This document shows positions 24,060 through 24,822 of a stretch of DNA of 64,000 nucleotides, one piece after another (within the stretch, counting starts at the first letter, position 1; each line of letters begins with the position of its first letter). The notes below the pieces were generated by a model, which did not search any database, was not told the DNA's origin, and worked only from the letters and a program-made list of their open reading frames with translations. Source of the DNA: an uncultured Hormoscilla sp. (GTDB lineage Bacteria; Cyanobacteriota; Cyanobacteriia; Cyanobacteriales; Desertifilaceae). The stretch is taken from NCBI GenBank assembly GCA_963921275.4, contig OZ001293.3, forward strand, positions 2,432,001 through 2,496,000. Direction: 5' to 3'. The position numbers and the translations under genes were made by a program.

Positions 24060-24822
24060 AGGCTCACCCTAAACTCCAACCAACTGACTGGCAGCATCCC
24101 GACTGAGTTAGGGAATCTTTCCAATTTGGATGATCTCTTGCTGTCCTTCAACCAACTGACTGGCAGCATCCCGACTGAGTTAGAAAATCTTTCCAATTTG
24201 ATTCGTCTCTTGCTGCACTCCAACCAACTGACTGGCAGCATCCCGACGGGGTTAGGGAATCTTTCCAATTTGGAGGATCTCTGGCTGTACTCCAACCAAC
24301 TGACTGGCAGCATCCCGACGGAGTTAGGGAATCTTTCCAATTTGGAGGATCTCTGGCTGTACTCCAACCAACTGACTGGCAGCATCCCGACGGAGTTAGG
24401 GAATCTTTCCAATTTGATTCGTCTCTTGCTGCACTCCAACCAACTGACTGGCAGCATCCCGACGGAGTTAGGGAATCTTTCCAATTTGATTCGTCTCTTG
24501 CTGCACTCCAACCAACTGACTGGCAGCATCCCGACTGAGTTAGGGAATCTTTCCAATTTGGAGGATCTCCAGCTGTTCTCCAACCAACTGACTGGCAGCA
24601 TCCCGACGGAGTTAGGGAATCTTTCCAATTTGCTATCTCTCTTTCTGGAAGAGAACCAACTGACTGGCAGCATCCCGACTGAGTTAGGGAATCTTTCCAG
24701 GTTGCGATTTCTCCGGCTGTACTCCAACCAACTGACTGGCAGCATCCCGACTGAGTTAGGGAATCTTTCCAATTTGGAGTTTCTCCAGCTGTCCGACAAC
24801 CAACTGACTGGCAGCATCCCCC
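24060..24822 (+). repeat. 72-bp LRR cassette array (11 NQLTGSIP motifs)
   Basis: Framework aaccaactgactggcagcatcccgacKgagttagggaatctttccaatttg is repeated nearly unchanged. Confidence 0.97.

Follow-up and report, generated by a model that had tools for sequence, protein, structure and literature searches.

A 72-bp LRR cassette, in which five hypervariable codons are set in a near-frozen 57-nt framework, is repeated throughout this Hormoscilla genome. The pattern is probably best explained by a recent expansion of one gene family, by duplication and exchange of repeats, and by diversifying selection on the concave face of the LRR. The window, as we call the whole stretch of 64,000 nucleotides that was analysed, is C1:2432001-2496000 of the 7.03-Mb assembly; its features are collected in Table 1.

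The window array and the gene that carries it

The main array (24073-24820) was called by Tandem Repeats Finder as a 72-bp unit present 10.4 times, with 88% matches and a score of 1086; the program also called a higher-order period of 216 bp. The open reading frame 23811-26540 holds in frame the N-terminal cap-like region, 11 repeats of 24 residues, the He_PIG domain, and four cadherin repeats. An earlier note on this DNA had listed 14 cassettes with the reading TTG-NNN-NNN-CTC-NNN-CTG-NNN-NNN-AAC (the NNN codons are termed x codons here, and the 15 nt that they make up in a cassette a patch), and all 14 read so; the main array has 10 of them, another lies at 22144, and the minus strand carries the other three at 40870-41085. 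The eleven x-patterns quoted in that note are all correct in the extracted cassettes, and the non-adjacent recurrence of a whole cassette was likewise found, IRLLLHS being present three times. The frozen framework of the note holds for the four codons TTG, CTC, CTG, and AAC, but the rest is not absolutely invariant: codon 17 reads ACG or ACT, and a few other sites vary. Variable columns in the main array number 14 of 15 in the x codons, against 6 of 57 in the framework (Fisher p = 1.8e-9). The nine internal repeats of the window array are 82% identical in amino acids and 88% in nucleotides, the genome-wide values being 69% and 78%; identity of the framework only, within arrays, is 96%.

The window copy is a non-functional pseudogene. 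Three lesions interrupt it: a group II intron inserted antisense, a +1 frameshift, and an IS element. Well over 100 near-identical genomic copies of the ORF-less intron were found among the matches listed, and its insertion site in the DUF4347 part is likewise filled in five paralogues. The frameshift near 23774 is seen as a 1-nt insertion in the alignment with an intact paralogue, and the insertion sequence has at least dozens of copies, at 98-99.6% identity, among the genome matches listed. Downstream of it the gene resumes (27463-28927), and this stretch matches the 3' part of the intact paralogue (C1:6767105-6768588) at 99.3% identity. The LRR is carried on a cadherin/RTX protein, as had been proposed, judging by the Pfam domains of the window gene and its paralogues: PF00353 and PF00028 are present in the 3' part of the window gene, in the second locus, and in paralogues, so that RTX repeats stand C-terminally after a repetitive cadherin stalk. 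Caution is needed in annotation, where such arrays and the numerous broken copies make up one family, the window copy being one of its pseudogenes.

The cassette that the earlier note had placed near 22141 is present, but it is a fragment at the junction of two gene families and lies outside any array. It is 100% identical to the cassette at C1:6388795-6388861; the entire junction is duplicated at C1:3980622-3981587 (94%), and the end of the beta-helix module at 22140 is matched in more than 20 other copies. We considered the lone cassette as evidence of cassette mobility and rejected it as such, given a junction between the beta-helix module and the region upstream of DUF4347 that is duplicated whole elsewhere. 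It is a rearrangement scar and no inserted mobile cassette. The fourth cassette of the second locus (41086-41157), degenerate and with two stop codons, was absent from the earlier list.

Table 1 Features of the window that bear on the LRR cassettes, in order of position
Feature	Positions	Strand	Evidence and remarks
ORF-less group II intron, second copy (cf. 22748-23622)	20880-21757	-	Rfam RF00029 at 20884-20960 (-)
Lone LRR cassette (LESLRLDGNQLTGSIPTELGN)	22139-22205	+	Lies where the multi-copy beta-helix N-terminal module (21862-22140) meets the region upstream of the DUF4347 gene
DUF4347 5' part, residues 1 to about 78	22513-22747	+	Pfam PF14252, E 1.8e-19; HMM positions 1-73; aligns with the start of the intact paralogue C1:6767319-6771335
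ORF-less group II intron, about 874 nt	22748-23622	-	Lies antisense within the coding sequence of DUF4347; Rfam RF00029 domain V/VI at 22751-22827 (-), 44.4 bits
Remainder of DUF4347	23623-23888	+	+1 frameshift near 23774, extra C in a C-run; HMM positions 71-126 and 127-164 in different frames
N-terminal cap-like region (EYQALRALYQSTNG...GWRGVTV), without the plant Cys pair	23898-24053	+	Translation
LRR array, 11 cassettes of 72 bp	24054-24845	+	One V-type first, 10 L-type; the final one fused to the C-terminal cap
He_PIG (Ig-like) domain	24870-25121	+	Pfam PF05345, E 1.1e-12; residues 354-437 of the 909-aa frame
Cadherin-like repeats, 300-bp unit x4.5	25132-26450	+	Tandem Repeats Finder; Pfam PF00028, E 1.2e-33
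Insertion sequence, DDE transposase ORF 26465-27289	26449-27464	-	Pfam PF13612/PF01609; cuts the cadherin region in two
Gene continuation: cadherin repeats, RTX nonapeptide repeats, C-terminal end	27463-28927	+	Pfam PF00028, E 8.6e-26; PF00353, E 6.5e-6
5'-truncated paralogue (second locus)	39541-41157	-	Degenerate cassette with stops 41086-41157, three complete cassettes 40870-41085, He_PIG, two cadherin repeats, RTX

The family in the genome and its LRR fold

A search with the framework motif, allowing up to 4 mismatches, gave 251 sites, all on C1; register-aware extraction yielded 245 cassettes at about 25 loci; the codons TTG, CTC, and CTG were not included in the search pattern. One and the same 57-nt framework is present in 80 of the 245 cassettes. 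The 15-nt patches come in 194 distinct forms, 192 when translated. Over the whole genome the consensus cassette reads LEDLWLYSNQLTGSIPTELGNLSN. A scan of sixteen family members showed DUF4347, then the LRR, He_PIG, cadherin repeats, and finally RTX nonapeptide repeats; in some members an LRR-He_PIG block occurs a second time. No ATPase domain was found in these 16 or in the window gene, so the NLR architecture (NACHT/NB-ARC) is lacking from them. From their domains the family proteins look like adhesins, putatively secreted by a type I system. Some arrays have units of 68 or 71 nt. Many members are truncated or frameshifted, and pN/pS in the flanks is about 0.5-1.0; part of the family may therefore be decaying.

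Among named homologues, the protein search placed nearest a DUF4347 protein from an Okeania MAG (58% identity). Matches to the framework pattern number 208 in this genome, as against 12, 15, 0, and 0 in four congeners and zero in 26 further genomes of the family and order; for DUF4347 there are 33 matches in this genome vs 1-11 in 30 relatives. Comparison of these genomes points to a family expansion that is lineage-specific relative to the congeners, probably with some concerted evolution. Congener cassettes have framework variants of their own (QLSG, QLDG), and among the 20 cassettes examined the x positions are variable there too. The consensus frameworks of this genome and of its congeners differ at 6 of 57 positions, near the genome-wide divergence (85-96% identity). 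A search of metagenome and genome collections gave distant relatives only (13 and 7 loci, 28-59% identity). In bacteria of unrelated phyla, LRR arrays of the PS type have a qualitatively similar contrast of x and framework positions, in the proteins as well as in the DNA, where the entropies are 1.2-1.7 bits at x and 0.34-0.84 bits in the framework (7 of 9 loci with enough cassettes), so this contrast is not unique to this genome; what is unusual here is the copy number of the cassettes. Sequencing runs listed for this DNA number 19, all of them Logan contigs; the highest share of words is 0.50, and none of the runs listed is of RNA.

The repeat unit of 24 residues, seen in the 72-bp period and in a beta-strand that recurs every 24 residues in the model, has the length of the plant-specific (PS) class. 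Plant-specific LRRs follow the consensus LxxLxLxxNxLxGxIPxxLGxLxx, and the consensus cassette fits it. The best PDB sequence matches were the ectodomains of FLS2, MIK2, and GSO1 (E 1e-153 to 7.5e-160); the cap-like region aligns to the N-terminal part of plant MIK2 ectodomains (query 28-309, chain 23-305). In a single-sequence AlphaFold model the repeats have a pLDDT of 86-98, with strands covering positions 3-7 of LxxLxLxxN, and the cap part has a low pLDDT. The structure so predicted was matched to ERL1, ERL2, and MIK2 (TM 0.75-0.82, rmsd 1.7-2.4 A), and the top 40 Foldseek matches are almost all plant receptor ectodomains. The x side chains of an LxxLxLxxN strand face the concave surface of an LRR, and in plant R proteins the variable residues stand at the x positions of the beta-strand. 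Consensus, PDB matches, and the predicted model all support what the earlier note had said of the x residues, that they lie on the beta-strand of a plant-type (24-aa) LRR solenoid.

In plants the N-terminal cap is cysteine-paired (LRRNT_2, CxWxGVxC). The corresponding region here reads NGWRGVTV, with no cysteines, and PF08263 is absent from the Pfam matches of the window gene. The family thus resembles plant LRR receptors (FLS2, MIK2, GSO1, ERL1/2, BRI1) in its 24-residue unit, its consensus, and its best sequence and structure matches; it differs from them in having no transmembrane or kinase part and no cap cysteine pair, in repeats that are far more uniform, and in being fused to DUF4347, He_PIG, cadherin, and RTX.

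Variation of the cassettes and its causes

Per-base entropy over the 245 cassettes bears out the hypervariable x codons on a near-frozen framework. Of the 15 x-codon bases, 13 have values of 1.2-1.9 bits; the other two, which are the third bases of codons 7 and 8, have 0.66 and 0.87 bits. In CTC and CTG, which stand between x codons, the fourfold third bases give 0.14 and 0.18 bits (98% invariant) and vary no more than other framework positions, and the third base of TTG, CTC, and CTG is unchanged in 97-98% of the cassettes. Since the fourfold CTC/CTG bases that lie between x codons are invariant, the variation follows codon role and is not regional; a regional mutator would hit them.

Among 193 unique stop-free patches, 38 pairs differ by a single step, 37 of them nonsynonymous and one synonymous (binomial p = 0.0024 for an expected synonymous share of 0.198; omega-like ratio about 9). 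Framework haplotypes, counted in the same way, gave 44 nonsynonymous to 20 synonymous steps, a ratio of about 0.8 (Fisher p = 3e-4 against the patches). Diversifying selection, which the earlier note had suggested, finds its evidence in this 37 to 1 count together with the invariant fourfold sites between the x codons. Pairwise Nei-Gojobori dN/dS was rejected as uninformative at saturated x codons and single-step counting used instead; over all pairs, pN/pS at the x codons is only 1.5-1.6, because these sites are saturated. The apparent synonymous difference is also elevated at x codons, most at codon 2, so that some of the diversity among patches may go back to old variants that were reassorted, and not to new selection.

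The codons also keep a memory of their third base. For Asp, Asn, Tyr, Phe, and His, codon 7 ends in C 178 times and in T 3 times, and codon 3 ends in T 90 times and in C 6 times; the third base C is kept at codons 7 and 8 in 89% and 84% of cassettes, and the first two bases vary. This bias by codon position indicates that the third base is inherited and that the first two bases change, and it too points to selection on the amino acids. Nearest-neighbour patches lie 1-2 nt apart in 105 of 158 cases, vs 41 of 158 after column shuffling, and the association between x codons weakens with distance, over 15 nt. The patches are related by descent.

Between the window copy and its close paralogue there are 12/433 differences upstream of the array, 17/1603 downstream, 15/627 in the framework, and 74/165 in the x codons. 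Over 276 array pairs, identity is 0.88-0.98 in the framework, 0.58-0.97 in the flanks, where some of the low values come from non-homologous contexts, and 0.43-0.61 in the x codons. Synonymous differences (pS) were compared in the 110 of 231 pairs that have homologous N-cap flanks, and are 0.04-0.10 in the framework vs 0.05-0.26 in the N-cap coding flank; framework pS is 2-3 times below that of the flank (there 0.08-0.26) in 107 of the 110 pairs and equal to it (0.054 vs 0.050) in the remaining 3, which are the closest paralogues. Homogenisation appears from these values to be real but modest, and much of the frozen framework could come from a recent burst of duplication without any conversion.

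Arrays of close paralogues are mosaics, of shifted register and different cassette number, and tandem duplicates are common, all of which fits unequal crossing-over. Patches found in more than one locus number 12 of 194, one shared patch is the consensus patch, and an exact shared stretch of at least 120 nt was found in 5 of 300 locus pairs; with so few such stretches, exchange between loci is weakly documented. Of the cassette shuffling put forward in the earlier note, duplication within arrays stands, as do a few cassettes and blocks common to loci, but exchange between loci is thin. Taken together, the x-codon pattern speaks for diversifying selection acting on the concave face, in a family that has also undergone recent expansion, tandem duplication, and a degree of homogenisation.

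The diversity might instead be old, with ancient patch alleles kept by balancing selection and merely reassorted by conversion and crossing-over, and with little new positive selection. Such a history would suit the variable third positions of x codons 2, 3, and 5, the coexistence at codon 2 of the synonymous pairs GAG/GAA and ACG/ACT/ACA, the decay of x-codon association over 15 nt, and the mosaic, register-shifted arrays of close paralogues. We hold it to be rather unlikely, as most patches are singletons and few are common to more than one locus, single-step neighbours are nonsynonymous with one exception, codons 7 and 8 keep their third base while the first two vary, and the congeners, as far as the 20 cassettes examined go, are without the patch set of this genome. 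Targeted mutagenesis, in which a DGR-like retroelement, a deaminase, or another local mutator would alter the beta-strand segment, could be read from the extreme contrast of 15 variable to 57 near-invariant bases, from codons 7 and 8 being mostly NNC, which recalls the AAC codons of DGRs, and from the 93 reverse-transcriptase (RT) matches (PF00078) in the genome. It is nonetheless highly improbable: the interleaved fourfold bases would not have escaped; the many framework adenines are unvaried, and A makes up only 4 of the 15 consensus x bases; and the change spectrum is unbiased, with 19 transitions, 19 transversions, and no sign of adenine bias (A is involved in 21 of 38 steps). The open frames of the RT matches are mostly of 430-610 aa, the size of group II intron proteins. 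RT matches are not enriched near LRR loci (within 10 kb at 4 of 25 loci, vs 5.0 +/- 2.0 at random), and a template/variable-repeat scan around 85 of the 93 gave one irrelevant 58-bp match. On these grounds the earlier note was right that the system is not a DGR, and its suggestion of targeted mutation finds no support.

In a programmed DNA rearrangement, shufflon- or VLR-like, a site-specific recombinase would cross over at the framework, and the broken arrays would be its silent donors. The earlier note had proposed a look for linked recombinase or RT genes; two weak matches beside LRR loci, among 10 genome matches to the serine recombinase PF00239, led to an XisF-like gene. The one full-length copy of this large serine recombinase (C1:3982815-3984089) lies 1.2 kb from one LRR locus. 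Truncated pieces of it, six in number, are found at 85-508 bp from where family genes or fragments end on the 3' side; there are also many fragment members as possible donors, and a lone cassette at a rearrangement junction. We consider such a mechanism very unlikely all the same. In the full-length copy, alignment begins only at position 48 of the Resolvase profile and 44 of the XisF profile, so that it is without an alignable catalytic N-terminus (XisF, 118 bits vs a cut-off of 375); the six pieces have neither recombinase end and keep a fixed distance to the gene ends, which makes them in all probability relics that were co-duplicated with these genes. No XisF-like piece was found within the window. 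The cassettes are direct repeats in complete reading frames, few blocks are common to loci, and with truncated recombinase pieces the features of a shufflon or of site-specific inversion are lacking. For VLR-like programmed assembly, to which the earlier note had drawn a loose analogy, no evidence was found either; the arrays are complete germline genes. The tyrosine recombinase PF00589 has no match in the whole genome, which is odd in itself and has no link to the arrays. That assembly or polishing homogenised the repeats is extremely improbable: the odd-length units and the frameshifts in some arrays are possible assembly errors, but 194 different patches are resolved in the 6.9-Mb contig, the variation tracks codon role, and a similar pattern appears in two congener assemblies and in unrelated metagenome contigs.

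Recent expansion with repeat exchange and diversifying selection thus remains the reading that we prefer. The cassettes would be the ligand-binding repeats of a predicted secreted, adhesin-like family, lineage-specifically expanded, which behave as the high-internal-conservation (HIC) repeats of fungal NLRs do (see below). Recent duplication of genes and cassettes, unequal crossing-over in the arrays, and some gene conversion would keep the 57-nt framework near-identical, and point substitutions in the five solvent-exposed beta-strand codons would be retained by positive, diversifying selection, the outcome being a germline repertoire of about 190 distinct binding-face patches. The selection may come from a changing partner, be it the host, phage, or neighbouring cells; stretches of 51 identical nucleotides may serve as recombination substrates, with mismatched patches limiting the conversion tracts; and a type I system would presumably export the proteins. 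We think it unlikely that the about 245 cassettes, broken genes included, form an interchangeable bank of LRR modules from which exchange keeps building new adhesin binding faces for host or kin recognition, with the 51-nt stretches as recombination substrates and the XisF-like recombinase possibly helping. If true, such a bank would be for bacteria, outside the cell, what the HIC-NLR repertoires are for fungi, and would parallel in the germline the diversity of VLRs.

Known systems and the meaning of the family

Lamprey VLRs have an LRR scaffold, and their germline gene is incomplete until cassettes from its flanks are joined into it in somatic cells, with an AID/APOBEC-like deaminase; DGRs require an RT, a template repeat, and adenine-specific changes. 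Both share with the present family a binding surface diversified on a fixed scaffold, which in VLRs is also an LRR; no RT/template-repeat link, adenine bias, or incomplete-gene assembly was found here. The TAL effectors of Xanthomonas are likewise near-identical tandem DNA repeats with specificity in a few hypervariable residues per repeat; theirs, however, are helical DNA-binding repeats of 34 residues with two variable residues, in effectors that are injected.

The closest likeness is with fungi. In the parts of the papers available to us, the HIC repeats of fungal NLRs (WD40, ANK, TPR) are described as near-identical within and between paralogues, with a few surface codons under diversifying selection, and are explained by concerted evolution together with such selection (PMC1805685, PMC4986451, PMC13449251). 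For the HNWD/het-d/het-e genes, the available text of these papers (Paoletti, Saupe and Clave 2007, PMC1805685, and the other two) gives the same near-identical repeats, few hypervariable surface codons, and nonsynonymous excess; fungal HIC NLRs further resemble our family, in the accounts available, in a repeat number that differs between paralogues and in an association with pseudogenes and transposable elements. Here, too, each repeat has a few hypervariable codons with a nonsynonymous excess, on a strand that is so placed by the predicted model. The differences are that the cassettes here are LRR and stand in extracellular RTX/adhesin-like bacterial proteins without a NACHT/NB-ARC ATPase, that there is no RIP here, and that exchange between loci is weakly documented. 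By the criterion of Dyrka et al. 2014, as given in the available part of that paper, HIC repeats have at least 85% identity over at least 100 aa (PMC4986451), and the window array, at 82% amino-acid identity, is just below it. LRR was not found among fungal NLR repeats by Dyrka et al., according to the same portion of the text (PMC4986451), and in bacteria the LRR survey of Ament-Velasquez and Saupe 2026, in the sections available, reports HIC mostly with ATPase domains (PMC13449251).

LRR, ankyrin, and cadherin proteins have been noted as "eukaryotic-like" factors in sponge-symbiont genomes, and symbiont ANK, TPR, and NHL proteins have an effect on phagocytosis, as set out in the available parts of two papers (PMC6520454, PMC13747020). 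An expanded set of predicted secreted LRR/cadherin proteins, in a genome crowded with mobile elements and pseudogenes, is common to these symbionts and to the genome studied here; the reports, to the extent available, give presence and counts and do not include cassettes with a frozen framework and a hypervariable face. Among open-access papers and preprints we found no description of the family, or of the frozen-framework pattern in cyanobacteria or sponge symbionts.

The genome is a natural library of about 190 LRR binding faces on one scaffold, and in this it resembles engineered repeat-protein libraries. It offers a test case for recognition repertoires that arise in bacteria from repeat exchange and selection, without a dedicated mutator. 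If the selective agent is the host, the family would be a concrete and tractable candidate for symbiont-host recognition.

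Recombinase genes and their remnants

The XisF-like large serine recombinase gene is present in one full-length copy, 1.2 kb away from an LRR locus, and shows no catalytic N-terminus that can be aligned. Six truncated pieces are found next to genes, or fragments of genes, of the cadherin/RTX family, each 85–508 bp from the 3′ end. In three paralogues of the broken window gene, a copy of the DUF4347-LRR-cadherin/RTX family, such a piece takes the place directly beyond the 3′ end, which in the window is occupied by a 127-bp tandem repeat including runs of the heptamer GCCATAA. Further tandem repeats were seen in the window at 10445–10601 and 4307–4594 (a 21-bp unit, 7.5 copies, 92% matches, and a nested 12/36/48-bp repeat). 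The tyrosine recombinase family (PF00589) was matched in all 14 control genomes and had no match in the whole Hormoscilla genome (7 Mb, 97% complete); either the genome lacks XerC/D-type genes or has only highly diverged ones, or the first-look filter did not work.

Features in the window and related elements on the main contig (C1)
Feature	Position	Details
127-bp tandem repeat	window 28973–29236 and 30279–30323	2.1 copies, 97% matches
ORF-less group II intron, copy 1	window 20880–21757	minus strand, ~875 nt
ORF-less group II intron, copy 2	window 22748–23622	minus strand, ~875 nt
IS element with DDE transposase	window 26449–27464	~1016 bp
N-terminal module (MATFNV...GTVNFNDLT)	window 21862–22140	multi-copy, >20 other C1 places
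XisF-like recombinase gene, full-length	C1:3982815–3984089	L059 (stretch around the gene):5316–6593
Six truncated XisF-like pieces	C1:6387817, 2182520, 6748498, 6766624, 4653118, 1888100	
DUF6603 protein, then 626-aa ORF	window 30871–36221	1147 aa, E 8.9e-145 (DUF6603 protein)

Mobile elements

Among the matches listed, well over 100 near-identical genome copies were found for the group II intron, and dozens of copies with 98–99.6% identity for the IS element, which together suggest a recent burst of mobile elements with widespread gene breakage. The DUF4347 site of copy 2 is occupied by the intron in six paralogues, antisense to the gene, as if the opposite strand of the DUF4347 coding sequence held a homing site.

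Neighbouring genes and LRR arrays elsewhere

The N-terminal module, weakly matching PF20585 (pectate-lyase-like adhesive domain), starts genes of a second family, apart from the DUF4347 genes; at C1:6520420–6523050 it is joined to a glycine-rich region, an LRR array, He_PIG, and cadherin. The 626-aa ORF following the DUF6603 protein gave no match in the Pfam search.

Arrays of the plant-specific (PS) LRR type with variable x codons (the binding-face positions) and similarly low framework entropy were found in sequences from unrelated bacteria, a Dehalococcoidia MAG chromosome (L052; 0.34 bits) and a metagenome contig (L040; 0.51 bits). Judged from these sequences, highly uniform LRR arrays are recurrent across bacterial phyla.
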